A stretch of DNA of 64,000 bases, taken from positions 135,460 to 199,459 of the forward strand of contig CAZQUE010000001.1 in assembly GCA_964596185.1 (NCBI GenBank), written 5' to 3'. A program made the translations under genes and the position numbers. The notes below the pieces were generated by a model that was not told the DNA's origin, did not search any database, and was given only the letters and a program-made list of their open reading frames with translations. Of the stretch, positions 9,780-63,982 are shown one piece after another. The stretch is from an uncultured bacterium. GTDB taxonomy: Bacteria; Muiribacteriota; Ozemobacteria; Ozemobacterales; Ozemobacteraceae. The stretch's first letter is position 1. Each line of letters starts with the position of its first letter.

Positions 9780-9790
9780 TTCGATGCGCC

Positions 9791-10852: not shown

Positions 10853-10885
10853 TTTCCCGCACTCCTTATTTTTTTATGTGTATGA

Positions 10886-12718: not shown

Positions 12719-12803
12719 TACTGCAGTTCCTTCCTTATTTCTTTACAGAAACAATTCCATTAGACTGTCATGATATATCAAGTTTCACTGAATTTCCAGT
12801 AAA

Positions 12804-15139: not shown

Positions 15140-15244
15140 ATTGTTTCCCCTTACGAGTCGATAGAACTGGTTATCTATCATTTCGGCAGCTGACTTGATT
15201 TTCTGAACGATAATTTAACTATTTTTGAAAAAAAGTTTTTTCAA

Positions 15245-15940: not shown

Positions 15941-15966
15941 TTTGCTATCTCCAATCATATTCGCTA

Positions 15967-44481: not shown

Positions 44482-45306
44482 TTATTTGTTCTTTTGTCGC
44501 TGGGGCTTCATGGCTGCAAGCAGCTTAAAACCGTCTTTGAGCTGTGGAAAATGTGGGCTGAGCAGCTTATACATTTTTCTGGCGACAAACAGGCCTAAGA
44601 TGCTGAAAAATGCTGATATGCCGGCCGGCAGCCACAAAGGAATGCTGAATTGCCGGTCGAAATCGGTAAACAAAACGATTTCTTTCGGCTGCCCCGCCGA
44701 TAGGTCAGATTCTTCAAGCCGAATCGCGACAATGGTGCGGTCGTCGCCATCATAGCGAATTGCCGCCTCGTTCCAGAAAAACTGCAGTTTTTCCGGAGAA
44801 AAGCGATGCTGAAGGTCTTCAAGTAAATTTTTCAGATAATTGTCTTGCAGGGCTGCGCTGATGCCTTCGGAAACCATGATGAAATGGTCGTCGAGGCAAA
44901 AGTCCAGGCTTGTGCTTTTTATGGCCGGCATGGTTAAGTGGGGTTTTCCGGTAAACTTTTTATTGGCAGCAATCAGACAATTGCCGTGCCATAAAAGGTT
45001 GGCTTTGCCTCTATGGATCCAGATGGCGGCAAAGCCATCGATGCCGGCCGGGTATTCGGCATTGGTTTCGGCTAATGCGGCCGCAGCAAACTCGGCCAGA
45101 CGCTCTTGCCCTTCTTCAGCTGAGAAGAGAAATGAGTTTTCGAGCAGTGACGTGGCAAGGAGCTGCAGCAGAAGACGGGCTGCAGAACTGCCGTCGGCAC
45201 CCTTTCCGTCGGCAAGCAGGCCCAGACGATTTTTGCGGTCGAGATGAACGGCATCCTGGTTGTGCTCGCGAATTGTACCAGCCGCTGTCAGCGACGAAAT
45301 CAACAT
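44482..45306 (-). CDS. PP2C-family Ser/Thr phosphatase-like protein with C-terminal TM anchor
   Basis: GTIREHNQDAV (compare GxxRxxNED), LADGKGADGSSAA (compare DGMGGHxxG), DGDDRTIVAIRL (compare DNxTVIVV), and a C-terminal hydrophobic helix. The start codon is 3 nt after the upstream ATPase stop. Confidence 0.55.
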   Translation of the reverse strand: MLISSLTAAGTIREHNQDAVHLDRKNRLGLLADGKGADGSSAARLLLQLLATSLLENSFLFSAEEGQERLAEFAAAALAETNAEYPAGIDGFAAIWIHRGKANLLWHGNCLIAANKKFTGKPHLTMPAIKSTSLDFCLDDHFIMVSEGISAALQDNYLKNLLEDLQHRFSPEKLQFFWNEAAIRYDGDDRTIVAIRLEESDLSAGQPKEIVLFTDFDRQFSIPLWLPAGISAFFSILGLFVARKMYKLLSPHFPQLKDGFKLLAAMKPQRQKNK

Positions 45307-45309
45307 CGG

Positions 45310-48300
45310 TCAGATTCCAGCCGGGGCCTTATGATCGAGCAGGCGGTTATGGGTGTTGACCAGCTGTTGAACCTTTTCAACCACGTCGAGCAGACCTTTT
45401 GATCGCAATCCGCCGGTGAGTGCGTCGACGAATACCAGTTTGACTTTCGGGTGGGTCGGCTCAACATAGCCGGTGCTGCGATCATCTCCGAGAACCCAGT
45501 AAGTCAGTCGGTCGCAATATGGCACCCAATGGGAAAAATCGCTGAAATCAGAATAAGCATTGAGCTTGGGAATGACGATCTGCGGCACATATTCGATCTG
45601 ATTTGCGGCATTGATATAGATGCGTTCGTTTTCAGGAACGATCGGAGCTACTTTCAGATTCGGCAGGGTGACTTTGAAGCGGGCTTTGCCGAAATGATTC
45701 AGGGCGATTTTTTCGGCAAGTGCTTCCCATTTGACGTTAATGTCACGGATTTCCTGAGAATAATTGAACAGCGCTTTCTGAAAAATCTCATTGGTTTTGA
45801 GCTCTTCGATGGCATTTTCGAGAGCAAGAAAATGAGAGTGGTTGAAAAGCGTGCCGAGCATGAAGCCGAGGCCATTGTTGAGGAAATGGCGGCGGGAAAT
45901 GTGCTGCGCGGCTTTTGCTTCATCGATATGCAGGCGGTCGTGAATCAGCCATGTGGTAGCCTGCCTTGCAGTTTCGAGGGCATCTGGTGCCTTCCAGAGG
46001 TCAGACTGCTCATTGAACTGCCAGGCTTTGAATTTTTGCGGGTAAGCGTTTTCGATGACCTGGTAGAGATTCTGGTTGAAAAGGTCGAGCAATTTTGACA
46101 GGCCGTTCATGTGGAATTCCCGAATGGAAATACGCTTGGGGATTTCTTCTATCGGTATGCCGAGCCTTTCTTCAATAAGCCAGATCGTAGCTTTCTGGGC
46201 CGTGTCGAAACGGTCTTCCTGGAACCATATAAGTGGCTCTTCCTCAATGAATTGCCATTGTTTGAAGACATTTGGGAAAACGGCATTAACCAGCTTAAAG
46301 CATGAGTCATCGAAGAGTTCGAGCAGTTTGCCCAGGCCATTGTCTTTAAAAATGTGCCGGTTCAGCATAGCCGGAAGATCGCCGCGACTACAGCCAAGTT
46401 TCTCTGACATCAGCCATTCTAGAGCTTCGCGAGCGCAATAGTTTTTGTCATTATTTTCGAGCCAGTTTTCAATTTCGTTGAACTGCCAGGGTTTGAATTG
46501 GCCAGGCAGAACCATTTCGATGAGCTTGAAGCGGCTTTGTCCGGACCAGAGCCAGACCTGTTCGAGGCCTGCATTGACAAGCAGCTTTTCATTGAATATT
46601 TCCGGTAGCTCTTCCGGTTTTTGCAAACGGTTTTTAATCTTTTCGAGCAGGGCTTTAACGGCTATGGCCGACCAGGTTGCCGCGATTTCATCATTGGCAA
46701 AGATAAAGTCGGGAAGATAGCCGCCTTTTTCCTGGATTAGATGAATGATGTCGACGATATCGGTTTCGCTCATTTCTTCGGGGGCCGCGCCGAAAAAGTT
46801 TTTGAATCCTTCGCTTGTTCTGGTTAGACCCTGCATTTGCAGCAGTTCTCTAATCTGCAGAACGGGCAGATGCATTCTTTCGGCGAGCTTTTCGTCACTG
46901 AAAAACAGATATTCTTTTTCGAGGGAAGCAATGATGGTCTTTATTACCGGATCATTGGGATCGATAACCGGGGCACTCCGCTGGGCGCGAATCGGCTCTG
47001 ACTGTGGCATGGTTGAGCCCATTGCCGCAGATTGGGGCATGGCCACCGGCACTACCATGCTGGGATTGCCGGTAAAAACTCCCGGAAGACTGATTCTTTT
47101 TTCTTCTTCATCGGAAGGAGTTACATAAACGACTTCTTCAAGAGTCGATTCTCCGACGATGGCCCGTTCAATGGCCATTTCTCTCAGAGTTCTCATGCCT
47201 TCCAGGCGTGCGATACGTTTTATTGCCATTTCGGTGCCGCCTTCCATGATAATGTCCTTGAGAGAGGCGGTCATTACCATGGTTTCGTAGACGCCGATTC
47301 GGCCAAAGGTGCCGGTTTGATTGCATTCTTTGCAGCCGGCGCCATGATAGAACTTGTTGCCGATCAGCTTGCCTGGTGAAAGATTGAGTCGCTGAATGAT
47401 ACTGTGGCTCGGTTTGTATTCGGTTTTGCAGCTTGGGCAGATGCGGTGCAGCAGTTTCTGGGCCACTACTGCTCTGACGGCAGCTGTGACCAGATAAGCC
47501 GGAACACCCATGTTGATCAATCGGTTGATGCTGGCCGGGGCATTGTTTGTGTGAAGGGTCGACAAAACCTTGTGGCCGGTAAGAGAGGCTCTGAAGGCAA
47601 TTTCAGCCGTTTCCAGATCGCGGACTTCGCCGACGAGAATGATGTCGGGATCCTGGCGCAGGGCAGAACGCAGGCCGCTGGCAAAATCAAGGCCGATTTT
47701 GTCGTTTATCTGAACCTGGGTGATGCCGTTGATTCGGTATTCTACCGGGTTTTCAATGGTGAAAATATTGATTTCGGTGCTGTTGAAATACTTCAGCATG
47801 CCGAACAGGGTTGTGGTTTTACCCGCGCCGGTCGGTCCGGTAACCAGAATCAGACCGTATGGTTCGTCGAGAGCGGCTTTGAGTCGAGACAGATCATCGT
47901 CGAAAAAGCCAAGATTGTCGAGGTCGTATTTTGCTTCACGCTGCAAAAGACGCAGAACCGCTTTTTCACCAAGTAAGCTGGGTACGGTGCTGACACGGAA
48001 GTCGATTTCCTTATCCTGCATTCTGACCTTGAGACGTCCGTCCTGTGGCAGTCTTCGCTCGGCAATGTCAAGATGTGAAAGAATCTTGATGCGACTGATC
48101 AACGGTGCGAGAAGGCTTTTGGGCCCGGTCATCGCGTCGTGCAGAATGCCATCAACGCGGAACCTGACCAGAAGAATGTCTTCGCGCGGTTCGACATGAA
48201 TGTCAGATGCTCTTTTTAGGATTGCCTGTTTAAAAATTGCATTTAAAAACTGAACGACCGCTCCCTGTTCCGAGGTTTTTCTGACAACTTCAACACCAGC

Positions 48301-48798
48301 TTCGCCCGGTTCACTGACTTCTGCTTTGCCGTCTTCACCACCGACAGAAAAGCCTTCCCAGGAGTAAAGCTGGCGGATTGCCAGTTCTATCTGATTTTTG
48401 GGGGCGATCAATACTTCAAGTTTGCATTGAGTAAGAAAGGCGATCATATCGGTGGCCATGATGTCGAAAGGATCGGCCATGGCAACGGTGAGGCGGTTTC
48501 CTTCCTTTTTCATCGGAACCATTTTGTATTGTTTGGCCTGATATTCAGGGATAAGCGAAAGAATCTTGGCGTCGACCTTGATGTTGGTCAGATCGATGAC
48601 CGATACCCCAAGAAATTCAGCCCAGAGGTCGAGAATTTGCTTCTCAGACATGAAACCAAGTCTGACAATGATATTTTCAAGGCGTTCGAGCGTCTGGGCC
48701 TGGATGTTTTTCGCCTTTTCAAGCTGATCTTCAGACAACAGACCCTTTTGCAGCATCAGGCTTTCAACTGTTTGTTTGGTTCCTTGAATGTTGTTCAT
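45310..48798 (-). CDS. GspE/PilB-family secretion ATPase with long C-terminal repeat-containing extension (1162 aa)
   Basis: The N-terminal ~570 aa have a GSPII_E N-domain, Walker A GPTGAGKTTT, and a CPSCK...CKECNQ zinc finger. A ~590-aa extension follows, containing three ~85-aa repeats (FKPWQFNE.../FKQWQFIEE.../FKAWQFNEQ...). GGAGGA SD. Confidence 0.8.
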   Translation of the reverse strand: MNNIQGTKQTVESLMLQKGLLSEDQLEKAKNIQAQTLERLENIIVRLGFMSEKQILDLWAEFLGVSVIDLTNIKVDAKILSLIPEYQAKQYKMVPMKKEGNRLTVAMADPFDIMATDMIAFLTQCKLEVLIAPKNQIELAIRQLYSWEGFSVGGEDGKAEVSEPGEAGVEVVRKTSEQGAVVQFLNAIFKQAILKRASDIHVEPREDILLVRFRVDGILHDAMTGPKSLLAPLISRIKILSHLDIAERRLPQDGRLKVRMQDKEIDFRVSTVPSLLGEKAVLRLLQREAKYDLDNLGFFDDDLSRLKAALDEPYGLILVTGPTGAGKTTTLFGMLKYFNSTEINIFTIENPVEYRINGITQVQINDKIGLDFASGLRSALRQDPDIILVGEVRDLETAEIAFRASLTGHKVLSTLHTNNAPASINRLINMGVPAYLVTAAVRAVVAQKLLHRICPSCKTEYKPSHSIIQRLNLSPGKLIGNKFYHGAGCKECNQTGTFGRIGVYETMVMTASLKDIIMEGGTEMAIKRIARLEGMRTLREMAIERAIVGESTLEEVVYVTPSDEEEKRISLPGVFTGNPSMVVPVAMPQSAAMGSTMPQSEPIRAQRSAPVIDPNDPVIKTIIASLEKEYLFFSDEKLAERMHLPVLQIRELLQMQGLTRTSEGFKNFFGAAPEEMSETDIVDIIHLIQEKGGYLPDFIFANDEIAATWSAIAVKALLEKIKNRLQKPEELPEIFNEKLLVNAGLEQVWLWSGQSRFKLIEMVLPGQFKPWQFNEIENWLENNDKNYCAREALEWLMSEKLGCSRGDLPAMLNRHIFKDNGLGKLLELFDDSCFKLVNAVFPNVFKQWQFIEEEPLIWFQEDRFDTAQKATIWLIEERLGIPIEEIPKRISIREFHMNGLSKLLDLFNQNLYQVIENAYPQKFKAWQFNEQSDLWKAPDALETARQATTWLIHDRLHIDEAKAAQHISRRHFLNNGLGFMLGTLFNHSHFLALENAIEELKTNEIFQKALFNYSQEIRDINVKWEALAEKIALNHFGKARFKVTLPNLKVAPIVPENERIYINAANQIEYVPQIVIPKLNAYSDFSDFSHWVPYCDRLTYWVLGDDRSTGYVEPTHPKVKLVFVDALTGGLRSKGLLDVVEKVQQLVNTHNRLLDHKAPAGI

Positions 48799-50598: not shown

Positions 50599-52176
50599 AT
50601 GAAACTGTTTTCAACGGCCCTGGTTCGAAGAATCTCACTGATCACGGTGATTCTGTTTGTATTCTCGACCTTGTCGGTCAGCGCCCAGGTTGGCGAAGTT
50701 AACATTCCGGTCAACAACACTCAGCCTATTGATATTTCACTTATCAACAACGTGTTGCCGGAACTCAACGGGTTGCAGGCTAATTTGAGGACTACCCAGA
50801 ATACCATTGCAACAATTGAAAAGATTTCTACGCCTCTTTACAATCAGGTAGCCCCAACCAATATGCAGACAATGAGCATTGCTCAGCGAGTTAAGGCAAT
50901 TCTGGGCAATGCAAAAAACCTGCTCACCGGAACCCTGAAAACCTCAAGCGTCGCTGCCCAACAGAATTTGCAGAGTGGAACCAGCATCGGCAATTTGCCG
51001 ATTGATCAGCAGCTGGCCTACAGCGTCGAACAACTCGGAGTTCAGGCTGCCAAAATTCAGACTAATCCTCAGGCGTCTGGCGCTATTGAAAAACTTAAAT
51101 CAATTCTGGCTGTAGTTAAAGACAAACTTCAGGCAATCGTAAACGTAATCAGAGCGAAAATTTTTGCCGTTGGTCAGAAAGTTGGTTTGATCAGTAAAGA
51201 TAAGCGCTTTGAAGATGGTAAGGTCGTCGACAATAAAGGAACGATCAATGCCGCCGCTGATGTGCAATATGCTGACAGTTTTTCCGGCAAGCTTTCAAAG
51301 GGTGTTAACGAAGGCGTTCAGAATGCCAAAGCTTCTTTGAAAAACAGCTTTTCGTTCTCGAACCTGGCTCTGACAACCACCGTTGCCGTTGGAACCAACC
51401 TCGCCATCGACATGATTCATGGTGAAAAACCTTCATTGAAAAAAGCGGTTAAAGCCGTTGCTTCGCTTGAATTCGCCGGCAGCGTGGCCGGTTCTGCACT
51501 TGGTGCCGCCGGCGGTCAGTTTACCGCCTCACTTGTAAAATCTTTCATTCCCGGTCCGATTGGTGCCATGGTTGGCGCTGTAATCCCGGTGATGTTCGCC
51601 TCTGCTACCGGTCAGATGGGCGCTGGCCTGATTTCTGGTCTGAAGAATGGTGAATTTTCAATCGCCAAAGCCTGGAAACAGGTTGATAAGGCTGATCTGG
51701 TCGGCTCTTCGATCGGGTCGACCATCGGTATGGCTCTTGGCGCTCCAATTCCAGTGGTTGGTCCAATTATCGGTGGTATCGTCGGCGGTTTGCTTGGCAG
51801 TAAGGTTGCCAAATGGATATCAGGTTTTGCCAAAGGTAGAAAGGTATCTTTCTTCGGCAAAGGTTATGATGTTGATAAATCATCTACTCCCACCCGAACC
51901 GGAGGATTCTCGGTTGGTATCGGTTCGATTGCCGGCCCTGGCAACAATGGACCGGTCGTCATGGGTTCGCAGGAATCTTCGCCGATAGTTTCCGGAAGTG
52001 TTTCTGCTTCACCTGAACAGCTTAAAGCTGCTGAGAAAAGATACTATGATGCCTACCTGCAGTATAACAATATGGTTAAGTCTGGTGACAGCGAAGGCGC
52101 TAAAAAGGTTTTCGAACAGCTCAAGGTTTATTCAGATGAATACAACAGTCTGAAAAAACAAATCAGCGGAAACTGA
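50599..52176 (+). CDS. Secreted protein with C-terminal glycine-zipper membrane-active region
   Basis: Signal peptide ...STLSVSAQV. An N-terminal Q/N/A-rich helical region is followed by GxxxG zipper stretches (GAMVGAVIPVMF..GAGLISGL..IGSTIGMALGAPIPVVGPIIGGIVGGLLG). Confidence 0.55.
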   Translation: MKLFSTALVRRISLITVILFVFSTLSVSAQVGEVNIPVNNTQPIDISLINNVLPELNGLQANLRTTQNTIATIEKISTPLYNQVAPTNMQTMSIAQRVKAILGNAKNLLTGTLKTSSVAAQQNLQSGTSIGNLPIDQQLAYSVEQLGVQAAKIQTNPQASGAIEKLKSILAVVKDKLQAIVNVIRAKIFAVGQKVGLISKDKRFEDGKVVDNKGTINAAADVQYADSFSGKLSKGVNEGVQNAKASLKNSFSFSNLALTTTVAVGTNLAIDMIHGEKPSLKKAVKAVASLEFAGSVAGSALGAAGGQFTASLVKSFIPGPIGAMVGAVIPVMFASATGQMGAGLISGLKNGEFSIAKAWKQVDKADLVGSSIGSTIGMALGAPIPVVGPIIGGIVGGLLGSKVAKWISGFAKGRKVSFFGKGYDVDKSSTPTRTGGFSVGIGSIAGPGNNGPVVMGSQESSPIVSGSVSASPEQLKAAEKRYYDAYLQYNNMVKSGDSEGAKKVFEQLKVYSDEYNSLKKQISGN

Positions 52177-52189
52177 TATAACGCTCTTT

Positions 52190-52221
52190 AAAAAAGGCTC
52201 GGGATATCCCGAGCCTTTTTT
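52190..52221. terminator. Bidirectional rho-independent terminator
   Basis: Hairpin ggctcggg-atat-cccgagcc flanked by A6 and T6, between the convergent genes 50599..52176(+) and cheR(-). Confidence 0.55.
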
Positions 52222-52243
52222 ATTTCAGTTTAAACAACTACTT

Positions 52244-53095
52244 TTATTCAACAAACATTGATTTTCCACTGGGTTTGAGGAAGACGGTGCGTTCATCGAT
52301 TCGAGTTTCTTTGAACAGGGGCGGAAGGTCGCGGGTGCTCTCTGTTGAGCCTATCAACAGGTAGCCGTCATCATTGAGGTGACGTCTGATTTTCACAAAC
52401 AGGCTCTCGCGATCCCTTGCCGAAAAGTAAATCGCTACATTGCGACAGAAAATAAGATCATAACGCTCGGGAAGCAAAAAGGGCTTTTGTAGCTCGATGC
52501 GATCGAAGATCATCGATTCTTTGAGTGAATCATGAATATGATACTGCTCAGAACGGGCAATGAAATACTTTTTAAGAAAGTCCGGCGGCACCCCGCGTTC
52601 AACTTCGAATTTGCTGTATGACCCAGTTTTGGCAGCCAGCAATGCCTGATGAGAAATGTCGGTAGCGGTAATCTGGTATTCTTTGGGTGCAGCGCCCAGA
52701 TCTTTCAAAATCATGGCGATGCTGTAGGCTTCCTGGCCGGTTGCGCAGGCCGCGCTCCAGATTTTCAAGGCCCTGGGTTGAGGAAAGCTGCGTACCCGAT
52801 TAAGGAGCTCTGGTAAAATTTTACTCTTCAATGCATCAAAAGGACTCGAGTCTCTGAAAAAAGAGGTTTCTTTTATGGTGATCTGATCGATGATTTCATC
52901 GCGAAGTTTTCTCTGACCAGGTTCTCGTGCCAGAAAATACAGATGACTGAAGGTATTGCAGCGGTATCTCTGCAATAGTGATGTCAATCGCTCTCTTATC
53001 AGATATTCTTTCTCTTCTGAAAGCGCTATTCCGGTTAAATCAAAGATAAATTGAATCCAGAGGGCTAGTTCATGATATTCCAACCTTTGAACCAT
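52244..53095 (-). CDS. cheR: Chemotaxis protein methyltransferase CheR
   Basis: KETSFFRD and WSAACATGQEAYSIAMIL are the SAM-binding motif context of CheR. Confidence 0.9.
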   Translation of the reverse strand: MVQRLEYHELALWIQFIFDLTGIALSEEKEYLIRERLTSLLQRYRCNTFSHLYFLAREPGQRKLRDEIIDQITIKETSFFRDSSPFDALKSKILPELLNRVRSFPQPRALKIWSAACATGQEAYSIAMILKDLGAAPKEYQITATDISHQALLAAKTGSYSKFEVERGVPPDFLKKYFIARSEQYHIHDSLKESMIFDRIELQKPFLLPERYDLIFCRNVAIYFSARDRESLFVKIRRHLNDDGYLLIGSTESTRDLPPLFKETRIDERTVFLKPSGKSMFVE

Positions 53096-53129: not shown

Positions 53130-54263
53130 TCAACCAATTTGATAGATCTTCTGCAGAGAAAGTCTTTCAAGTTTGTTTCTAATTTCCTTGAGAGAGAGAA
53201 TCTCATTGGCGAGTTTGGCTTCAACTACCACTTTGGGCATTCCATAAACGACGCATGATTTCTCGTCCTGGGCAACCACGTAGCCATTGTTGTCTCTGAT
53301 CATTCTGGCGCCGGCCAGCCCGTCCATGCCCATTCCTGTCATGATGAAAAAAGCTATTTTGCCGGAAAAATTTTTAACCAACGATTCAATCAAATAATCA
53401 ATAGAAGGTTTGCAATTGTTCACCGGAGGGTCGTCCGTCAGCTTGAATCGGTAATTGCCGTCTGAGCATTTTTGCAGAGCCAGATGTCTGCCGCCTTTGG
53501 CAATGTAGATGCACTCAGAATCCATTGGCATTTGGTCACAGACCTCTGCAACATCGAGACCCGATCTTTCTTTGATGCTTTGGGCAAGTGCTTCAGAAAA
53601 GTTTTCCGGAATATGTTGAACGATGATTATCGGGATCTTGAGCTTGATGTGGAAGTCTGAAAACAATTCCATCAGTGCCGGAGGGCCTCCGGTGGAGATG
53701 CCTATTACGACAAGATCCGGGGTGAATCTGGCTCCGGCCGGTACTGGTTGCGGAAACGCCTGATCGGTTTTAGCCTGCTCCAGCTGTGGAGATTCGATCT
53801 TCTTTTGTGTCGAACCGGAATTTTTAGCAAGTTCGATACGGAATTTGCGACGGTTGATAAAGGCATTTATTGCAGACTGAAGATCTGAACGTAATAGTTG
53901 GCGGGTTTCTTCCATGGTGTGGTTGCCCTGTGGCTTGGCAACGAATTCGAAAGCGCCGGCAGCGAGCGCCTTGATGGCACCGCGGCACATACTGGGTGAA
54001 GCGCCACTGACGATGATTATTCCGATTTCGATCTTTTGTCGCTTCAATTCTTCTATCAGCTCAAGGCCGTTCATTTCAGGCATGTCAAGATCAAGAAGAA
54101 GCAGATCCGGTTTCAGGTTGAGTATTTTTTGCAGGGCAATTTTTCCGTTCGGTGCCTGACCCAGGATCTGCAGGTTTTTCTCTGTAGACAACAGATCAAT
54201 AAGTATCTTCCTGAAAACCAGCGAATCATCAACGATCAAAGTTCTTACCGGAGTTGGCTGCAT
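53130..54263 (-). CDS. cheB: Chemotaxis response regulator protein-glutamate methylesterase CheB
   Basis: N-terminal receiver (LIVDDSLVFRKIL...DLDMP) followed by the C-terminal methylesterase GISTGGPPAL. Confidence 0.9.
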   Translation of the reverse strand: MQPTPVRTLIVDDSLVFRKILIDLLSTEKNLQILGQAPNGKIALQKILNLKPDLLLLDLDMPEMNGLELIEELKRQKIEIGIIIVSGASPSMCRGAIKALAAGAFEFVAKPQGNHTMEETRQLLRSDLQSAINAFINRRKFRIELAKNSGSTQKKIESPQLEQAKTDQAFPQPVPAGARFTPDLVVIGISTGGPPALMELFSDFHIKLKIPIIIVQHIPENFSEALAQSIKERSGLDVAEVCDQMPMDSECIYIAKGGRHLALQKCSDGNYRFKLTDDPPVNNCKPSIDYLIESLVKNFSGKIAFFIMTGMGMDGLAGARMIRDNNGYVVAQDEKSCVVYGMPKVVVEAKLANEILSLKEIRNKLERLSLQKIYQIG

Positions 54264-54758
54264 TTAGTTTTCACCTTGATTGAGATCGCCTTCATCGTAT
54301 TTTTCGAGCACTTGCTCGAGCTTCAAAAGACCGATCATATTTCCATCGAGAAAAAAGAAACCGGCCAGCGATTGCTGCATGGCAGGCTGTAGATTTTCCG
54401 GATTGGGAACAAGATTCTCGTCGGAAAAGGGAAAGATTCCTGTGAGGGATTCAACCAGGAAGCCAACCAGCTCCGAATTTGTTTCGACAACCAGTATTCG
54501 TGACTCCGGACCGATTATCTGGGGTTGCAGTTCAAGTTTAACGGCCGGGTCAATCAATGCCAGAACCCGGCCACGCAGGTTGAAAAGACCTTTTACATAA
54601 GCAGCAGCGTGATGAACCGGTCTGATCTCCGGGACTGCCAGGACTTCCTGGATGTGACTGGTCGGTATGCCGAAGGTATTGCCGCAGAATTCGCAGACCA
54701 GTACCAGGGCATTGTCTTCATCGAGGAGGCTTTCAGCCAGATTCATCAGTTCGGTCAT
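54264..54758 (-). CDS. cheW: Chemotaxis coupling protein CheW
   Basis: A single CheW-like domain of 164 aa. Directly abuts cheB with no gap, and sits 1 nt from the MCP stop. Confidence 0.8.
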   Translation of the reverse strand: MTELMNLAESLLDEDNALVLVCEFCGNTFGIPTSHIQEVLAVPEIRPVHHAAAYVKGLFNLRGRVLALIDPAVKLELQPQIIGPESRILVVETNSELVGFLVESLTGIFPFSDENLVPNPENLQPAMQQSLAGFFFLDGNMIGLLKLEQVLEKYDEGDLNQGEN

Positions 54759-54759: not shown

Positions 54760-57564
54760 TCAGATTTTGAACCTTGTTAACATATTGTTGAGCTGTTCAG
54801 AAAGTCTTGAAAGCTCTCTGGCGCTTGAAAGCACCTGCTGGCTCGAAGAAGAAATTTCACCCGAAGCGGTATTTACCCGTGCGACGTCTTTCGATGCTTC
54901 TTTTGTGCCGATGGCTATTTCTGCCATGCGTGAATTAACATCTCTGATGCTTTGTGAGGTGTCGGCAATATTACCAGAGATACTTTTGGTAACACTGGCC
55001 TGTTGCTCGATGCTGCTGGCAATCGCAGCAATGATGTCGCTGACTTCACGAATGATTTTGCTGATGTTTTCAATGTCGCCAATCGCGTTCACCGTAACTT
55101 CTTGAATTCCGGCAATTTTTTTGCGGATATCGATGGTGGCGATTGAAGTTTGCTGGGCCAGTTCTTTAACTTCATTGGCGACGACCGCAAAGCCCTTTCC
55201 GGCTGCCCCGGCTCGGGCTGCCTCGATTGTCGCATTCAGTGCGAGCAGGTTTGTTTGCGAAGAAATGCTGGTAATGGTTTCGGTTACCTGACCGATTTCC
55301 TGGGCCGACTTTTCCATTGCCTTGATGATATCTGAAACGCCACTGGCTTGTTGACTGGCATTACTGGCAATTCTGCGTGCTTTTTCTGAATTAGCGGCAA
55401 TTTCAGAGATGGTAACGCTCATTTCTTCGGTGGCCGTAGCAACTGTCGTCAGATTCATCGTCGTTTGCTCCATGCTCGAAGCCACCGAAACAGCATTTGA
55501 ACTCATTTCTTCGACAGCCGAAGCGACGAGTGAAGAGCGATCGTTTGATTCGCGAGAATTGGTTGCAAGTTGTTCAGAAATTGCAGAAAGCTCAGTTGAT
55601 GAAGATGCGAGGGTCTGAGCGCTCTGATTAAGCTCGCGGAACATTTGTGAGAGCTGTTTGACCATTGTTGCGACTGCCTGCATTTGCTGGTCATTTTCAG
55701 AACGCTGGGTTACTTCAACCATCAAATCGCCTTCGGCAACCTTTTGAGCAACGCTGGTTACCCCAAGAAGCGATTGAATCAGCTGATTCAGGCAATCTTT
55801 CAAGACATTGAACTCGCCTCGATATTCATCCTGAACCGGTGCAGGAATTTCGCCCCGGCTAAGTTTCCAGAGATTTTTTGAGACCATTACAATCGGGTCT
55901 TCAAAGGCTTCGAGAATGTTGTTCATCTCTTCGACAATTCGTGCAAATTCACCACGATTGCGGCTGGAATCACAACGCACGGAGAGATTTCCCTCAAGGG
56001 CCGCCTTCGTCAGGGTGTGACTGTCGCTGATTAGGTTGTTAAGCGAAGTTCGCACCATCTGAAGATTTTTGCTGATTGTCTGGAAATTTTCAAAAATCGG
56101 TTGGGTTGCCTTGTTCGGTGTGGCAATGTCCCAGTTCCAGTTTAAGTCTCCTTCAGCCAGTTTGGCGAGACACTCTGCAAGTTTGTTGAGTTCGTTGCTT
56201 TGATAACTAAACACTTCTGCAGAGGTTCGGGTTAGCGATTCGACCTCGTTCCGGCCTTCTTCAGCCTTTTTCAAAAGAAAGTGATGGCAGTTTTCAGGGC
56301 GATTCAGCTTGTTATAGATTGCGACAGCCATGCCTTCACAGTTGCCGTATCCGCAAGAATTACAGTTGAAGAAGTCATCTTCAGAAAACTTGCCCATTTG
56401 TTGATAAATATGGTCAAGTTCACTTTTTGCGGGCATTTTAATAATGTTACTCTGGCTGCGATTTTCATAGCTTCGCGCATATAGACGGGGTTTCCAGTAA
56501 CGATTTAGCAGCTTTTCAATGCTTTTGTGGGTTCTACGGGCTGACATCGGGCCCCAGCGCTTGTAGCGCTTTTGCATTTCCCGATTTCTTTCTTCAACGA
56601 GTCTTTCGACTTCATCGGGTGAGCTGTGTTTGATGTCGGTACCGGTGCCGGCGTTGCAACCCAGCTCACAATTGAGACAATCGACGAGCAATGGTGCCTT
56701 TTTCTCGAGGCGAAGCCGGTTGAGATCTTTCAAATAATCGTAAATGATGTGTGGCCCTTCAATTTTGCGGGTAACTTCCTTTACATCGGCATTCCAGCGT
56801 TCCGCGGTTCTGAGAAGGCCGCCTGGAGTTGAAAAAAGAACAGCTCTTTCGGCGGGCGGGTTGTCGTAATCGACCTCCGGGAAAGTGGTCAGATGAATGT
56901 TGTTCTTGGCCATCCAGGCTTTGAGATTGGACATGGTCACATTGTAATCGCCGAAACCGGTCTGATAAAACTCTCGCTTTTTGGCAACGCAGGGCGATAA
57001 GACGGCGACCTTGTGGGCTGCAAACCTTGGCCAGTATTCCTTGATCATTTTTATCGTATGCAGCATTGGGCTGTCGGCAGGCGCGAATGAAGGCAGCAGG
57101 TCGGGCTGGTAGATTTCCGCATAATTTACCAGAGCCGGGCATGGTTGGGCAATTACCAGGTCAGGCTCATTGCTCTTTATGTGCTCAAGGTAAGATTTGA
57201 TGGTCAGTTCAGCGCCAAAACTGACGTCAAAGATACCGGCGACACCAGTTGATTTCAGCCAGCCGTTGAGGCGCAGATATTGATTGGGGAAAGATACTGC
57301 AACGGCGGGTGCCACAACCGCGATTATGGGCTCGCGACGGTTGAGCGCTTCAATGAAAGCCGCAGTGTCATCGACGGGTCTTCTGGCATCGTGGGTGCAG
57401 GTTTTCAAACATTGGCCACAGCCAATGCACATGTCTGAGTTTATCTCTACTGAATCTCCAGAGGCATCATTGCAGAATTTAACCGGGCATGCGGCGATAC
57501 ACGCATGACAATTTACACAGTTGTCTTTTACGACTTCGATTACTTGTGGTAGAGAGCGTAACAT
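54760..57564 (-). CDS. Soluble methyl-accepting chemotaxis protein with N-terminal 2x[4Fe-4S] ferredoxin plus [FeFe]-hydrogenase-like sensor domain
   Basis: Two CxxCxxCxxxCP ferredoxin motifs ([23 protein letters not shown]) are followed by a region with H-cluster-like motifs ([31 protein letters not shown]). The C-terminal part is a canonical MCP signalling domain (...[31 protein letters not shown]...). No TM helices. GGAGGA SD. Confidence 0.85.
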
Positions 57565-57584: not shown

Positions 57585-60206
57585 TCAGGTTGCGGATCGA
57601 ACATGGTCGAGCCAGTCGGAAATTTGTTGCATTTCAAGTTTGAGCATGTGTGCTCCAATACCTTCATGGCTGAGGTCGAGATCGCGGTCTCCCTCTTTTG
57701 TCCATAAAGTAGCAACTTTTATTCCATCGAGTTGTTTATTCTGTTTCAGTTTGCGCAAAGTCAGAAATTGATCTTTCTTAACCAGGGAAAGGTCGGCGAG
57801 AATGCCTTTGATGCTGTGCCCGGGCGCAGACAGGCAGTCTTCGAGTTCGGCAATCGACCCGGCAATTCTGACGTTGCAACCCTGGTTTTCAAGCTGCAGC
57901 TTGAGTTGGTTTTGAAAGAAACTGTTTGCCTCAAGCAATGCAATACAGGTTGAATCCTTAGGGATAGAATCATCTGGCAGAGAATGTTCCAACAGCTCGG
58001 GTCTCGTGTTGGCAACGATTTCAATTATATCAATGAATAACAATGATTCGTTCTTCCAGACAGTTGCGCCACTGATACCGGGTCTTCTGAACACCTGGCG
58101 ATCAAATTCAGGTATCAACTCGATCACTTGAATCGGCAGGGCAGCAATTAGTCCTATTTCTCTCGATTTGAGGCGAACTACGATCACTCCCCATTCTTTG
58201 TCTGATGACAGGCTGTCAAGTGAATGACCATCTACAGGAAAGACCGGCAGAATCTTGTCTTCAAGCTGCAAAGCCCGCCAGTCACCACAGGAGATAAGAC
58301 GTTCGGGCAGGACTTTTTCAAGTCTGGAAACAAGAAATAACGGCAGAGCATAATTTTCCGGCCCGGCAACCTTGAAGCAAAGAAATGGCAGAGCTTGATT
58401 TTCTGCCGAAATATTGCGGTCACTTTCAATCAAATTACTGTTGATATGATTTTGCCGGCCAAGAATTCCAGATCGGGCGGCTAAACCAAGAACGTCGATG
58501 ATCAAGGCAATCCGGCCATCACCGAGTATGGTTGCGCCAGAATACTCGCTTAAAGATTTCAAGTCCTTGCCGAGCTGTTTTACCACGATTTCTTCGGTAA
58601 AAAGAGGCTTGTCGACGATCAGGGCAAAAGTAAAACTGCCGGTAGTGACGACAATTACGTTCAGGCCACTGGCTGAATGAAAGCGCCGACCGTCTTTGCG
58701 TGGCTTTGTTTGCGCAATATTATGCGGAATCAGGCGGTCATGCCCGTTTTTAAGTTCATTATTGCGCCGGTCTGCAATGCGTTTGCGTCGGTTTTTCAGC
58801 TTGATTTTTCGTTGCGGGTCTTCATAACTGTCTTCACATCCGAGGAAGCGATTTAAAGAAATGAGTGGCAGAAGTTTACCCCGCAAAACCAGAACTTCCT
58901 GATTGCCGATGATTTCAACGCGGCGCTTGATCATTTCAGCGGGTATAAGCAGCATTTCAAGAACATTAGCCTGTGGAATAGCGAACATTTCATCGGCGCT
59001 GGTCAGAATCAAAGAGGGAATTATGGCCAGAGTCAGCGGCAGCTTAATTTTAAATATCGAACCTTTTCCCGGTTCTGAAATTATTTCGACTTTACCCCCC
59101 AAACTGTCAATGTTGGCTTTAACCACGTCCATACCCACGCCGCGGCCGGAAAGCTCCGATACTTTTTCGGCCGTTGAAAGTCCTGGCAAAAAAATAAGAT
59201 TCTGCATATCTTTAATTGACATGTTTTTTGCTTTTTCGAAAGAAAGCAAACCACGATCTATCGCTTTTTGACAGACTTTCTCTCCATCAATGCCGCGACC
59301 GTCGTCGGCTACCTCGACAATTACCCGACTGGCTTCGTAAAATGCCTGAATCTTGATATGGGCTGGTAAAGATTTGCCGAGCCTTTTGCGTTCATCCGGA
59401 GTCTCGATGCCATGGTCAATGGCGTTGCGAACCATGTGGGTCAATGGATCGCCAAGACCTTCAATCAGCGTTTTATCAAGTTCTACTTCGCGACCTTCGA
59501 GGCTGAGTTTAATTTCTTTGCCGAGCTTTCGCGACAGATCTCTTATCATTCGCGGAAACTTGCAGAAAATTCGATCTATCGGCTGCAGCCGGGTCATCAT
59601 GATCGTTTCCTGAAGTTCGGTCGTAACCTGACCCATACGTTGTCCACTCATGCGGATAGAGCGCATGTCATTACGGCTGAGAGCTTCGCGAAGCTGGTTT
59701 CGGCTAAGAACCAGCTCGCCGGCCAGATTCATCAGATTTTCGAGTAAGCTGACCTTAACACGCAAGGTTGGTTCTGAAACTTCTTTAACCTGAATAGCTT
59801 CGGTCGCCGATGACATTTTTTCTTCAGCATCTTTAGCCGGAGCTTCTGGCGCGGCCTCGGCTTCTGCTCTCTGAGGTTCGAAGGGCAAAAACGAACCGGA
59901 TGGAACTTCAAGAAAAACTTCGATTTCTCCCGGGCCAATCTCTGAGCTGTAGAGAATCTCGATTGGCAAATTCGAGTCAGCTGAAAGATCATTTTCGTCA
60001 AATGTATCAAAGTCGATTTTTAGTTGTAAGACACTTCCTAAGCCATATAGCAGTTTTAAGAAGTCACCCAGCGATTTGCCGAGACTGTCGATGTCTTTGA
60101 TCAGGTTCAGTTTTGCGTGATAAATGTTCAGGCCCAGATCCATGGCTTCGTCGAGCTGTGCGCGCACCCCATCGTCTTCTGGTTCATTGGCAAACGAACT
60201 TTCCAA
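57585..60206 (-). CDS. cheA: Chemotaxis histidine kinase CheA (possibly with C-terminal receiver-like domain)
   Basis: Dimerisation region ([25 protein letters not shown]), HATPase ([16 protein letters not shown]...GRGVGMDVV), CheW-like domain(s), and a C-terminal ~120 aa with a degenerate REC pattern. The start appears to be TTG; the upstream frame is closed by a stop 30 nt earlier. The N-terminal P1/Hpt region is short and divergent. Confidence 0.8.
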
Positions 60207-60340
60207 CCATGACTTTTTTACTGGCAGGCCGTCTCATGTACCCTCTTTTTTAGTTTGTTTGTGGAGACTCAGCCTAGATTATCACGTCTCATTTATTTAT
60301 ACAAGCCGGCGCGAAAATATTTGTAATTGCCAGTTCCCGC

Positions 60341-60369
60341 TTGACGAAAAGACCGGGTAATAGTATCAT
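60341..60369 (+). promoter_or_regulatory. Candidate sigma70 promoter for purD
   Basis: TTGACG (60341-60346), a 17-nt spacer, then TATCAT (60364-60369), ~40 nt upstream of the GTG start. Confidence 0.4.
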
Positions 60370-60410
60370 TGCGCGGCGGCATGTGCCGATGATAAAACGG
60401 AGAATTAGTT

Positions 60411-61652
60411 GTGAACATACTCGTGCTTGGTTCTGGAGCCAGAGAACATTCTTTGGTACATTCTCTGTCCAAGTCTCCCTCGGTACATCGGATTTTTGCC
60501 TGCCCCGGCAATGCGGGAATGGCAGACATCAATCTTTGTAAAAGAATTCCATTCAAGGATAATGTCGAACTTATCAAGCATTGCCGCGACAAAATCGCCC
60601 TGGCGGTTGTCGGCTCTTCGAAATTCGTTGAAGATGGAACGGTCGACGCGCTGGCTCTTGCCGGTATTCCGGTAATCGGTCCCGCCGAAGATGCCGGCAA
60701 AATCGAGACCAGTAAAGCATTCGCGGCAAAATTCATTGCCAGGCACAAGATTCCTGCCCCACATACAATGATTGTCGTAAATGAGCAGGAGATAGATGCT
60801 GCATTCGCTCAAAACCAAAACCTGCTGGTTGCCAAGTGTGATGGTTTTTCACACGGTGAGGGAGTAAAGGTTTGTAAGAATACCAACGCTGCTATTCAGG
60901 CTGCCAAGGATCTTTTGCGCAAGAATGGCCCGCCGGTAATACTTCAGGAGCCCTTGATCGGCGTTGAATGCTCATATTCAATTCTGACCGATGGCCAGCA
61001 ATGGGTTTCTTTCAGCTCGAGCCGAGATTATAAAAGAGTTTTTGAAAATGAAACCGGCCCAACCTCTGGAGGAATGGGTTCCGTGAGCCCTTCACCAGAC
61101 CTAACTCCTGAACTCGAGCAGAAAATCATTCGAGAGATCGTTCAACCAGTCGTTAACGGTATGAAACAGGACAATCTTCTTTATCGCGGCTTTTTGTCCA
61201 TTCAGTTGATGCTGACGGCAGAAGGCCCAAGAGTGCTTGAATTCAATGCCCGACTTGGTGACCCGGAGACACAGAGTATTCTGACCCGTTTCCGTGGCGA
61301 CCTGGCTTGCCTGCTGAAGGATTGCGCTATGGGGTGTCTTACTTCAGTTGGCTCTGAAGTCGCTTTTGGAAAACATTCTGCCGTGTCGGTGGTTATTGCC
61401 CGTGAGGGTTATCCGGAGTCAGAGGCCGCCGACCCGATTATTGATGGACTGGAGAAAATTCAGGATTCCTATGTTTATTTTTCCAACTGTCGTAAGTCAG
61501 AAGATGCTGATCGCATGAAATTCAAGAGCGGTCGATTGTTGAGTGTCACCGCAATTGGCGAGACATTGGAATTGGCTAAAAATAAGGTTTACCAGGATAT
61601 TTTGCTGTTAAACCTTGCCAAAGTTCATTACCGCAAAGATATCGGCAGCTGA
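60411..61652 (+). CDS. purD: Phosphoribosylamine--glycine ligase
   Basis: N-terminal (M/V)NILVLGSGAREHSLVHSL is the classic PurD start. ATP-grasp body. GTG start with an ACGGAG SD. Confidence 0.9.
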   Translation: MNILVLGSGAREHSLVHSLSKSPSVHRIFACPGNAGMADINLCKRIPFKDNVELIKHCRDKIALAVVGSSKFVEDGTVDALALAGIPVIGPAEDAGKIETSKAFAAKFIARHKIPAPHTMIVVNEQEIDAAFAQNQNLLVAKCDGFSHGEGVKVCKNTNAAIQAAKDLLRKNGPPVILQEPLIGVECSYSILTDGQQWVSFSSSRDYKRVFENETGPTSGGMGSVSPSPDLTPELEQKIIREIVQPVVNGMKQDNLLYRGFLSIQLMLTAEGPRVLEFNARLGDPETQSILTRFRGDLACLLKDCAMGCLTSVGSEVAFGKHSAVSVVIAREGYPESEAADPIIDGLEKIQDSYVYFSNCRKSEDADRMKFKSGRLLSVTAIGETLELAKNKVYQDILLLNLAKVHYRKDIGS

Positions 61653-61669
61653 CCTTCTGATACATGATG

Positions 61670-61708
61670 AAAAAAAGAGGGACTTATTAGAAAGCCCCTC
61701 TTTTTCTG
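61670..61708. terminator. Bidirectional terminator between purD and the PLD-family gene
   Basis: A7 run, then hairpin aagaggg...cccctctt, then a T5 run, between convergent genes. Confidence 0.4.
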
Positions 61709-61735
61709 ATATCGGAGAACGTTTTTTCGATTGAA

Positions 61736-63982
61736 TTAAATCAACTTTTTGAATATGGTGAACTTTGACAAGGTCTTAAGCATCCAGAAATTTTTGCCCT
61801 TGAGATCATCGGGCCCGAAAACTGATTTTATCTTGCCATTTTCATCGATCGATATCTGATATTCTTTACTCTGGTTGAAGTCTTTGTAGATTTCGCTTCG
61901 CAGCTGCTGAGCGAATTCATCTGACTTAACCGCTGCCACAACTTCTGAGTTGATCTGCTCACTCATCCAGTCAAGATTATAGGTGCCGACTACGCCGACT
62001 TTTCCGTCAAATACCCAGTTTTTGGCGTGCAGCTTGCGCTTGCCGTAATACACGAAGATTCTGATGTTGGGAATCTCGGCCATTACTTGCTTCCACTGGG
62101 CATAAAACATTGCCTGGGTCGCGAGACTGTCAGTTGAATAAGGACTGTTTGTGTGCAGTTTGATGCTGACACCACGGCGTCCGGCGCGTTGCAGGGCTGC
62201 AAAAATTCTGTCAGTTAAAACAACATAGGGGTTCTGAATGAGAACTTCTTTTTTGCTGCCATCGATGTATTTAACCATTTCATCGGTAATGTCATTTCGT
62301 GGCCCGCCGAGTGAATGCTTGTCAATTATTTTTGCATAAGCTTCAACCGAATTACTCAATGGTGAGAAACCGGCATAGCTTCTGAGGTTTTTATATGGAG
62401 CCAGTTCGCCAAGGAATTCCCTGGCGCTGTTGAGATACTTCTTGTCGACGTTGGCTGAAACGGTAAAACGTTCGTTTAAAAGATGTGAGTACATTGTATC
62501 GCGAGCAGCAAGCATCTCGTTGCTCATGATATCAATGTTGCCCCAGAGCTCTTTACCGATGGTGTAGGTTTTGAGCTTTGAGAACTCTTCGTCGAAAGCA
62601 TAAGAAAGCTGTCGGGCTACATCGTCACATCTGATAATGACATCTGTGTCGCGATAGCATTCAGGGTGGTCTTCTACTTCCAGGAAGTAATCCTTGGAAA
62701 CATTGCGGCCACCAACGATGCTGTATTCGTTATCGATGACGATTATTTTGTCGTGATTAGAGGCCATAATTTTGCGAAGATCGGTGAGGGCAGTAAGAAG
62801 ATTCGAATGCGCCGGGTTGAAAACCTTTACTTCGCAGTTTGGCAATTCCAATAGTTCCTGGAGGAAATCCTGGCCCATTAGCTTGCGGGTAAGTTGCTTG
62901 GTGCCGCGAGCATCGAGCATGAGTCTGATTTTGATGCCTTCTCTGGCTTTTTTAAGCAGAGTGCCCAGCATCGACATACCGAAAATGTCTTTATCCATGA
63001 TGAAATATTGAATGTCGATGCTGTGTTTGGCTTCATTCAAAAGTTTCCAGCGACCGTACCAGGCTTCTGAGTTGGAGTATCTCAGACTGACTTCGGCAGT
63101 TTTGTTCGATTTACCTGTGGCAGGAACAAAACGATCAAAAGTGATATTTACCGGCGGAGCAAATTGTGCCCCCAATTTTTCATACGCAAGCTGGAATTTT
63201 TCAAATTTATCCTGATTGCTGTTAAATTTAAATAATTTACTGACATAGCCTGCCCACCTTGTGGCTTTTACCGGAAAGGCCAGCCAGGATGTATTTCTGT
63301 ATTTTTCGTAACTTTTCTGCGAGTCAGCATAAGAACTGTTTAAAACCTGTTTCCATTGCTTGTGGCTTTTGCTGGCCTGGTAATAGGCGAGGCGTTGTCG
63401 GGCAACATAAGCAGCTTTCGAATTGGGCTTGTTTTTGGCGATTTCAGTGAGAATTTTAGCGGAGGTTTCCTGGTCATCTTTGAGCAGGTCGTAGGCTTTG
63501 GCCAACTCATATCTTGCCATATCGACGAACTTTGATTCGGGATTGCTATTGATAAAGGCTGTAAGGAGCTTCATCATTGCGTCAGGCGATTTTCTACCCT
63601 TTTCTGACCAAAGCTGGTCTAAAATTCGTTTTAGACCTGCAGGTAGTTCTACTGCTTTGGTAGAAGTAGCAATCGATGAAGAAGAGCCTGAATCGACAAA
63701 ATTCTGGTAATCTTCGGTTGCGTTTTCTACGGCAGTTGTTCCGTCAAGAACCTCATCTGAAGAACGATGAAGATTGCCTTCATAAGAATTTTTGGCGTCA
63801 AGATAAGCATTCAGAAGAGATTTGATTTCCGTATCGGATTTTTTTTCAAGAACAGCATTGCGATAGGCGTTGTAGGCAGAAACATAGGCTTCATATTCCG
63901 CACGCGCATCGGCAAGACAAACTGAAGTAACTGCCGCTAACAAAACCATCAGCAGCAGAACTGATGAAAATTTTATTTTCAT
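61736..63982 (-). CDS. Secreted phospholipase D-superfamily protein (two HKD motifs) with N-terminal TPR-like region
   Basis: Signal peptide MKIKFSSVLLLMVLLAAVTSVCLA. HKD motif 1 is HDKIIVID...GGRN and HKD motif 2 is HAKNWVFD...GTYNLD. GGAGG SD. Confidence 0.7.
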   Translation of the reverse strand: MKIKFSSVLLLMVLLAAVTSVCLADARAEYEAYVSAYNAYRNAVLEKKSDTEIKSLLNAYLDAKNSYEGNLHRSSDEVLDGTTAVENATEDYQNFVDSGSSSSIATSTKAVELPAGLKRILDQLWSEKGRKSPDAMMKLLTAFINSNPESKFVDMARYELAKAYDLLKDDQETSAKILTEIAKNKPNSKAAYVARQRLAYYQASKSHKQWKQVLNSSYADSQKSYEKYRNTSWLAFPVKATRWAGYVSKLFKFNSNQDKFEKFQLAYEKLGAQFAPPVNITFDRFVPATGKSNKTAEVSLRYSNSEAWYGRWKLLNEAKHSIDIQYFIMDKDIFGMSMLGTLLKKAREGIKIRLMLDARGTKQLTRKLMGQDFLQELLELPNCEVKVFNPAHSNLLTALTDLRKIMASNHDKIIVIDNEYSIVGGRNVSKDYFLEVEDHPECYRDTDVIIRCDDVARQLSYAFDEEFSKLKTYTIGKELWGNIDIMSNEMLAARDTMYSHLLNERFTVSANVDKKYLNSAREFLGELAPYKNLRSYAGFSPLSNSVEAYAKIIDKHSLGGPRNDITDEMVKYIDGSKKEVLIQNPYVVLTDRIFAALQRAGRRGVSIKLHTNSPYSTDSLATQAMFYAQWKQVMAEIPNIRIFVYYGKRKLHAKNWVFDGKVGVVGTYNLDWMSEQINSEVVAAVKSDEFAQQLRSEIYKDFNQSKEYQISIDENGKIKSVFGPDDLKGKNFWMLKTLSKFTIFKKLI

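Follow-up and report, generated by a model that had tools for sequence, protein, structure and literature searches.

A predicted sensory [FeFe]-hydrogenase module fused to a cytoplasmic chemoreceptor in a dedicated che operon of an uncultured member of the Ozemobacteraceae

Background

What does a hydrogenase-like domain do at the head of a chemotaxis receptor, and what would such a receptor sense? The question is posed by a gene for a 934-residue methyl-accepting chemotaxis protein (MCP) in a stretch of 64,000 nucleotides, hereafter the window, from the genome of an uncultured bacterium of the family Ozemobacteraceae (assembly GCA_964596185.1, contig CAZQUE010000001.1, positions 135,460 to 199,459). 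A preliminary description of the window, made from the DNA and its translations, had recognised in the N-terminal part of this protein two 4Fe-4S ferredoxin motifs and blocks resembling the H-cluster-binding motifs of [FeFe]-hydrogenases, the first of them with a single cysteine; had seen the protein continue, with no transmembrane helix, into a full MCP signalling domain; and had placed the gene in a cheA-mcp-cheW-cheB-cheR operon. It proposed a redox- or H2-sensing chemoreceptor, analogous to sensory hydrogenases such as HydS and wired to chemotaxis. The facts that it stated have all held, and the proposal is supported as a hypothesis by Pfam matches, predicted fold and sensory motifs, from which we infer the sensing of H2 itself. 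We put the probability that the receptor is an H2-responsive chemoreceptor with a sensory [FeFe]-hydrogenase module at roughly 60%. The description was incomplete in that it overlooked a third cluster motif, a HAMP array, the lack of an Hpt domain in CheA and the existing name of the class.

The sensor module

The receptor gene starts with ATG, with a GGAGGA box 8 nt upstream, and an identical protein is encoded on an independent Logan contig (SRR13617028). Pfam profiles of the Fer4, Fe_hyd_lg_C and MCPsignal families all match it. The N-terminal dicluster of the Fer4 type comprises two complete CxxCxxCxxxC motifs (C16/19/22/26 and C46/49/52/56), and is followed by a match to Fe_hyd_lg_C (PF02906) at residues 79–306, with an E-value of 6.9e-31 and 108.2 bits against a cut-off of 22.1, which covers positions 2–244 of the 245 in the profile. 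For residue mapping, the receptor was aligned with the hydrogenase CpI of Clostridium pasteurianum, whose reference sequence had been verified as identical to that of PDB entries 1feh and 3c8y, and with 120 database homologs; a second conservation set consisted of 78 family open reading frames (ORFs) from 77 genomes or loci in many phyla. The motif blocks L1, L2 and L3 are all present and could be mapped onto CpI, with L1 reading AQPCP in place of the TSCCP of CpI, hence with one cysteine as first noticed, and L2 reading SPCVAKKRE. The predicted H-cluster ligands C142, C192, C299 and C303 correspond to C300, C355, C499 and C503 of CpI. In both sets all 16 cluster cysteines are invariant, as are K195, E198, P86, P166 and F244, and K195 is the equivalent of CpI K358, which pairs with the distal cyanide. 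The contacts to the [2Fe] subcluster are strictly kept (K358, P231, P324, F417 and the bridging C503 in CpI numbering), and the QPC triplet is present in 77 of the 78 family ORFs irrespective of their output domain.

The canonical proton-relay pathway, in contrast, is missing: in CpI numbering, C299 is replaced by proline (P141), E279 falls into a gap, and E282, R286 and S319 are replaced by serine, histidine and alanine, respectively. The two pocket methionines are also exchanged (M353 for S190 and M497 for L297). By its residues, this is the proton-pathway pattern of sensory rather than catalytic enzymes. The entire pathway is absent from the M2e and M2f enzymes, and about 10% of sensory sequences have proline at the Cys299 position. 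Beyond the H-domain, the receptor carries a further motif, C401-x2-C404-x4-C409-x16-C426, whose four cysteines are invariant in the 78 ORFs and which is matched at residues 400–426 by PF04060 with 20.3 bits, below the cut-off of 23. The spacing Cx2Cx4Cx16C is a hallmark shared by the putatively sensory subclasses M2e and M2f (groups D and C).

An AlphaFold2 model of residues 1–440 has a mean predicted local distance difference test (pLDDT) score of 74.8, with most of the H-domain between 75 and 97 and the ferredoxin part poorly modelled. The top 50 Foldseek matches of this model in the PDB are [FeFe]-hydrogenases without exception, with a probability of 1.00 and TM-scores of 0.52–0.59. Membership of an unrelated iron-sulfur family without a hydrogenase fold, the outcome that the preliminary description had named as speaking against its reading, is contradicted by the PF02906 score and by the predicted structure, which matches only [FeFe]-hydrogenases. 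Residues 1–440 thus have the sequence and predicted fold of a complete sensory-type [FeFe]-hydrogenase module with a predicted H-cluster site.

The analogy to HydS turned out to be closer than had been claimed, as it extends to the Cx2Cx4Cx16C motif, to the lost proton-transfer residues and to the M353S/M497L pocket of TamHydS. Both TmHydS and TamHydS hold a genuine H-cluster and turn H2 over slowly. Compared by published motifs and residues, TamHydS of Thermoanaerobacter mathranii (group D, M2e) shares with the receptor two N-terminal [4Fe-4S] motifs, the H-domain, the Cx2Cx4Cx16C motif, the absence of a PAS domain, the loss of the proton pathway and the replacement of M353 by serine and of M497 by leucine; it differs in standing alone, with no output domain fused to it, and in the receptor the Cys299 position is proline. 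The C-terminal cluster of TamHydS stays unreduced at 1 atm H2 and may be structural. TmHydS of Thermotoga maritima (group C, M2f), a proposed H2 sensor with low activity and a stabilised reduced H-cluster, has the same layout of three accessory clusters and has likewise lost the proton relay, but carries a PAS domain after the C-terminal cluster, where the receptor has none; its pocket consists of A131, G177, S267 and Y223 in place of P141, S190, L297 and F244, and its presumed output is gene regulation, that of the receptor being the Che pathway. Group A [FeFe]-hydrogenases (CpI, DdH, CbA5H) have in common with the receptor the H-domain fold, the four cysteines, the Lys-Glu pair and N-terminal ferredoxin-like clusters at about 18–22% identity. 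Set against them, the receptor has one cysteine instead of two in L1, has replaced both pocket methionines, lacks Glu279, Glu282, Arg286, Ser319 and a small-subunit-like C-terminus, and is fused to an MCP.

Receptor architecture

The receptor has no transmembrane helix, since its most hydrophobic 19-residue window, which lies inside the H-domain, reaches a Kyte-Doolittle mean of only 1.35. C426, the last of the cluster ligands, stands in the model at the start of a helix (residues 427–439) that exits the sensor module toward a HAMP-type array. Pfam finds no PAS domain in the receptor, although one at this place is the defining feature of M2f and classical group C, and the helix and the array come directly after the C-terminal cluster; sister proteins with histidine kinase or SpoIIE outputs do carry PAS domains. 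The array contains a Pfam HAMP_2 match at residues 537–598 (nucleotides 55771–55956) with HAMP-like GDL...GEF repeats on both sides. It spans about 200 residues and is absent from most members of the family.

The signalling domain is recognised by MCPsignal (PF00015) with an E-value of 3.6e-30 and 105.5 bits against a cut-off of 34.6. Its hairpin tip, at about residues 770–796, aligns with the TM1143, Tsr and Aer structures. End to end, the domain aligns with T. maritima TM1143 (2ch7) with a single 7-residue gap in the C-terminal arm, which suggests that the bundle is one heptad per arm shorter than that of TM1143. Putative methylation sites of the consensus [ASTG]xx[EQ][EQ]xx[ASTG] occur at residues 661, 682, 850 and 906, and there is no C-terminal pentapeptide. 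Taken together, these features predict a soluble cytoplasmic chemoreceptor with a four-cluster sensory-hydrogenase module and no PAS domain between module and MCP. In its general plan it resembles receptors of the Aer, Aer2, HemAT and TlpD types, in which a cofactor-bearing cytoplasmic sensor is followed by HAMP units and an MCP hairpin that controls CheA; their sensors are PAS-FAD, PAS-heme, globin or zinc domains, that of the receptor a four-cluster hydrogenase module. The nearest NCBIfam MCP model is that of Aer2, far under its cut-off.

A named and widespread class

Proteins of this kind already have a name. HydDB (Sondergaard, Pedersen and Greening 2016) defines an [FeFe] Group C2, "Chemotactic (putative)", as a homolog of the catalytic subunit linked to an MCP, with H2 sensing proposed (PMC5037454), and a later genome-mining paper repeats that description. 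Judged by architecture against the published definition, the receptor is a member of Group C2: it joins a hydrogenase-like module and an MCP in one polypeptide, and nothing essential differs. It departs from most members in two respects, its length, 934 residues in the receptor and its Riflebacteria orthologs against the usual 554–753, and its location in a dedicated che operon, most members being orphans. The greater length is due to the HAMP-type array between sensor and signalling domain.

At E ≤ 1e-10, 3728 clusters were obtained in a word-indexed search, and in 119 of the best 120 the proteins combine Fer4, Fe_hyd_lg_C and MCPsignal, most with PF04060 as well, at 55–64% identity. Scanning one genome per GTDB species with sequence patterns gave at least 575 loci in the Desulfobacterota, Fibrobacterota, Spirochaetota, Planctomycetota, Bacteroidota, Acidobacteriota, Verrucomicrobiota and other phyla, a sample skewed toward the clade with QPCP in its L1 motif because the patterns were specific to QPCP. 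Candidate carriers in culture are Desulfoluna limicola (NZ_AP024488.1), Desulfoluna butyratoxydans, Desulfobotulus mexicanus, Treponema sp. TIM-1 and Gracilinema caldarium. A HMMER scan of 1.84 billion representatives at 50% identity yielded 1112 proteins at E ≤ 1e-30. The best 150 of these comprise 52 with MCP output (about 35%), 59 with histidine kinase (about 39%), 15 with SpoIIE/PP2C phosphatase (about 10%), 4 with a CheA-like kinase, 10 with another output, 2 with PAS only and 8 stand-alone proteins, and these output types mirror HydDB groups C2, C1 and C3. At four loci (L024, L034, L047 and L064) the same module is fused to PAS and SpoIIE, to PAS and HisKA/HATPase, or to PAS, a CheA-like kinase and CheX; the modules of these loci and of L060 are 54–57% identical to that of the window and have the same pocket. 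Among representatives P0121 to P0269, some fusion proteins reach 1629 residues.

Public names for the family vary between methyl-accepting chemotaxis protein, 4Fe-4S binding protein and [Fe-Fe] hydrogenase large subunit C-terminal domain-containing protein, because the protein reaches the cut-off of none of the NCBIfam models; for a hydrogenase model it scores 130 bits where 450 are required. Clustering of the neighbours around family loci found che genes as the sole recurrent ones, and 20 of 77 loci have a cheA gene no more than 10 kb away. The receptor adds a new copy, extended by a HAMP array, to a widespread class that already has its name.

The che operon and its kinase

The order cheA-mcp-cheW-cheB-cheR was verified on the minus strand (Table 1), with intergenic gaps of 20, 1, 0 and 34 nt. 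The hairpin listed in Table 1, which sits between cheR and a convergent gene at 50599–52176, is the probable terminator of the operon. A scan for sigma-70 promoters in the spacer between cheA and purD gave nothing above background, the sigma-70 consensus being uninformative for this phylum. The closest sensor domains among the matches listed are those of seven loci (L001–L007) in Candidatus Rifleibacterium amylolyticum and Riflebacteria-type metagenome-assembled genomes, with 75–80% identity in six and 68% in the seventh. On this evidence the window probably derives from Candidatus Rifleibacteriota. The receptors of L001–L006 are exactly 934 residues long and have the same HAMP array; that of L007 has 946 residues. 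All seven loci have the same gene order; in three, cheY precedes cheA, and in L001 a cheX was confirmed by Pfam. Within the operon, conservation is highest for the receptor, at 74–77% full-length identity in L001–L006 against 45–62% for the others.

The wiring to chemotaxis that had been proposed stands as far as the tight operon, the MCP and CheW, CheB and CheR are concerned; what does not stand in this genome is the cognate kinase. Its CheA has 873 residues compared with 1033–1074 in the orthologs, and no Hpt/P1 domain is found in it or elsewhere in the 64-kb window. The aligned orthologs (L001, L003, L004, L006 and L007) all start with a P1 region carrying FRAAHSIKG; in L003, the sole ortholog scanned, this region scores as Hpt in Pfam. 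Positions 60172–61982 of the window have a counterpart with 99.5% identity in an independent read set, on a 2.3-kb contig (L082, SRR35183622). This contig carries an extra 453 bp (positions 26–478 of L082) that encode exactly P1 and are flanked by the 9-bp direct repeat AGAAGACGA, of which the window retains a single copy. Judged from this comparison, a 453-bp deletion has removed the P1/Hpt segment of cheA in this strain. An assembly artefact at the 5' end of cheA was rejected, because the bounding repeat, at only 9 bp, is too short to collapse an assembly and the body of the ORF is intact; an overlooked Hpt domain was also sought in the other reading frames and in the rest of the window, and none was found.

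In the window, the native ATG (60187) no longer shares the reading frame of the kinase body. The P1 ORF of L082 does not share that frame either, and one more A in an A7 run would give the fusion in the register of the orthologs. A sequence look-up found no record of the exact 873-residue protein. Without a P1 provided in trans, the window CheA is probably unable to autophosphorylate, and the lesion could reflect decay within the strain or a kinase that undergoes phase variation. Since its CheA is without P1, the output of the strain would need P1 in trans or another kinase, or would be impaired; thus the chemotaxis wiring may be impaired here, though it is intact in the orthologous operons.

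Maturases and the link to hydrogen

Genes for the maturases HydE, HydF and HydG were sought in the window and within 10 kb on either side of 80 related loci. One of these, L060 of Bacteroidetes bacterium GWF2_35_48, has all three, each passing its NCBIfam equivalog model, together with hydA, a QPCP-type sensor with PAS-histidine-kinase output and a second sensor-kinase that has aspartate at the Cys299 position and glycine at M353 (Table 1). Because the QPCP sensor is embedded among hydE, hydF, hydG and hydA, its genomic context ties the sensor module to H-cluster biogenesis and H2 metabolism, at a single locus and for the kinase-linked type. The other radical-SAM and GTPase candidates near the 80 loci are LipA, ThiH and SPASM-type proteins by NCBIfam. 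The window holds no other hydrogenase genes, and we found no literature report on hydrogenases or maturases of Riflebacteria or Ozemobacter.

Table 1. Positions of the receptor, its parts, the che operon and the L060 comparison locus; window positions count from the first letter of the window
Sequence	Feature	Position	Strand	Basis
Window	Receptor gene (MCP with [FeFe]-hydrogenase-like sensor), 934 aa	54760..57564	-	ORF, translation, Pfam
Window	Two [4Fe-4S] ferredoxin motifs, accessory F-clusters, aa 9–61	57382..57540	-	Pfam Fer4/Fer4_7
Window	H-domain, aa 79–309	56638..57330	-	PF02906, CpI mapping, fold match
Window	Third accessory cluster motif, aa 397–427	56284..56376	-	PF04060-like match, M2e/M2f motif
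Window	HAMP-type array, aa 445–640	55645..56232	-	Pfam, length comparison, repeats read in sequence
Window	MCP signalling domain, aa 641–934	54760..55644	-	PF00015, alignment to TM1143, motif scan
Window	cheA: dimerisation, HATPase, two or three CheW-like domains, degenerate REC-like C-terminus	57585..60206	-	Pfam, ortholog alignment
Window	Single copy of 9-bp repeat AGAAGACGA, scar of predicted 453-bp deletion	60172..60180	-	Comparison with L082
Window	cheW	54264..54758	-	Pfam CheW, E=3e-27
Window	cheB (REC + methylesterase)	53130..54263	-	Pfam
Window	cheR methyltransferase	52244..53095	-	Pfam
Window	Palindromic hairpin, 15-bp stem, U-tracts on both strands	52189..52222	.	Terminator scan
L060	hydE	6843–7928		NCBIfam equivalog passed
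L060	hydF	7987–9186		NCBIfam equivalog passed
L060	QPCP-type sensor, PAS-histidine-kinase output	9992–13225		55% identical to window module, same pocket
L060	hydG	14958–16400		NCBIfam equivalog passed
L060	Second sensor-kinase	18198–20183		Asp at Cys299 position, Gly at M353
L060	hydA	20225–21301		Large- and small-subunit Pfam domains

What the receptor may sense

If the receptor responds to H2, its H site would be matured by HydEFG encoded elsewhere in the genome, and H2 would bind at the H-cluster and be slowly split. A conformational change would then leave the module via the helix that begins just after C426, and the HAMP array and a bundle of about 42 heptads would carry the signal to the hairpin tip, where the activity of CheW and CheA would be altered; CheR and CheB would reset the receptor through the Glu/Gln methylation sites. 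Overall, this would produce taxis, or other behaviour under Che control, along gradients of H2 or redox potential. Several points weigh against such a response to H2. We found no experimental study of any Group C2 member in the literature. The hydE, hydF and hydG genes are absent from the window, in which five ORFs of 171–281 residues had no family match, and the MCP-type members among the 80 loci likewise have none within 10 kb, the sole case adjoining a histidine-kinase-type member. The proline at the Cys299 position could affect the bridgehead of the azadithiolate (adt) ligand, and the cognate CheA of this strain is without P1.

Three other accounts of the module have to be set beside it. 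It is possible, at rather low odds, that the receptor is an energy-taxis sensor of the ferredoxin pool, with N-terminal clusters that would exchange electrons with ferredoxin and report how far the low-potential pool is reduced, the H-cluster being an extra redox centre only or coupling the pool to ambient H2. M2-type hydrogenases normally take up electrons from ferredoxin through such a dicluster, which the family has kept without variation, and electrons in TamHydS travel mainly through the N-terminal clusters, which become reduced in the presence of H2; the receptor is also cytoplasmic, as known energy-taxis receptors are, and the MCP-type members have no genomic linkage to hydrogenase genes. 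A plain ferredoxin-like sensor, however, would not require the [2Fe]-contact residues that are strictly kept, and the hydEFG/hydA neighbourhood of L060 argues for a link to H2. The two accounts overlap, because H2 and ferredoxin would equilibrate via the same clusters. Doubtful in a somewhat higher degree is a receptor whose H site is never matured, which would hold [4Fe-4S] clusters only and would sense O2, nitric oxide (NO), reactive oxygen species or iron-sulfur status through cluster damage or oxidation. The lack of a maturase gene in the window or beside any MCP-type member fits this account, as do the replacement of the proton-relay cysteine by proline, a residue that is without precedent there in assayed enzymes, the failure to pass any NCBIfam hydrogenase model, and the decision of a genome-mining study to drop its Group C2 matches as unvalidated hydrogenases. 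It is opposed by the invariance across phyla of the [2Fe] contacts and of the K358-E361 pair, by the QPCP-type relative that lies among maturase genes in L060, and by TamHydS, which has the same serine and leucine in its pocket, incorporates [2Fe]adt and is active.

Extended to the whole QPCP clade, the same thought would make its members, in most hosts, redox, O2 or NO sensors of hydrogenase descent with four [4Fe-4S] clusters and no [2Fe] subcluster. We regard this as improbable; it draws what weight it has from the invariant proline at the proton-relay position and from the lack of maturase genes adjoining MCP-type members, and the invariant [2Fe] contacts and the L060 relative speak against it. 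Were it true, Group C2 and its sisters linked to histidine kinases and phosphatases, which have the same pocket, would be misnamed as H2 sensors. Very improbable is a catalytically competent hydrogenase tethered to chemoreceptor arrays, with a metabolic role in making or consuming H2: the complete H-cluster site, the electron-entry clusters and the measurable turnover that TmHydS and TamHydS keep would allow it, but the whole proton-transfer pathway of fast enzymes is missing, the outputs of the best 150 representatives show the module fused to signalling domains, and the receptor lies in a Che operon with adaptation enzymes.

If Group C2 proteins are H2-responsive chemoreceptors, anaerobes would have a direct means to swim along H2 gradients, which bears on syntrophy, on the H2 economies of gut and sediment and on signal transfer by sensory hydrogenases. 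The MCP fusion gives the module an explicit output, measurable as CheA activity, which is lacking in the sensory hydrogenases studied to date, as these stand alone or have a PAS domain only. To what databases already contain, the locus itself adds little except a clean operon dedicated to the receptor in the Riflebacteria lineage and, for the cognate kinase, a natural allele from which P1 is deleted.

Other genes of the window

The rest of the window contains type IV pilus genes, two giant immunoglobulin (Ig)-repeat proteins and housekeeping genes. The giant ORFs, at 15967–25749 and 26696–40579 on the minus strand, encode 3260 and 4627 residues, in which Pfam recognises only a few bacterial Ig-like domains, located close to the C-terminus, and, weakly, Por_Secre_tail (sorting of the type IX secretion system type); G+C content and GC skew are raised across this block, and a PorV/FadL-like outer-membrane protein is encoded at 14129–15181. 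Tandem paralogs at 2532–4832 and 4850–7093 on the plus strand have the core and peripheral domains of an archaeal AglB-type oligosaccharyltransferase and adjoin a gene for a 928-residue sulfatase-family protein (7107–9893, minus strand), in a stretch of lower G+C content (0.40–0.43 against about 0.50 elsewhere). Four ORFs of 173–281 residues have no Pfam match at E ≤ 0.001 (41023–41868, 42019–42540, 44482–45306 and 25913–26692). Genes of type IV pili or type II secretion are scattered over the window and include, besides a second PilB of 610 residues, a PilT-like ATPase, a prepilin peptidase and a pilin (among them 9791–12718 and 1249–2427), a PilB-like ATPase of 1162 residues (45310–48798, minus strand) with a C-terminal extension of about 600 residues that matches no family.

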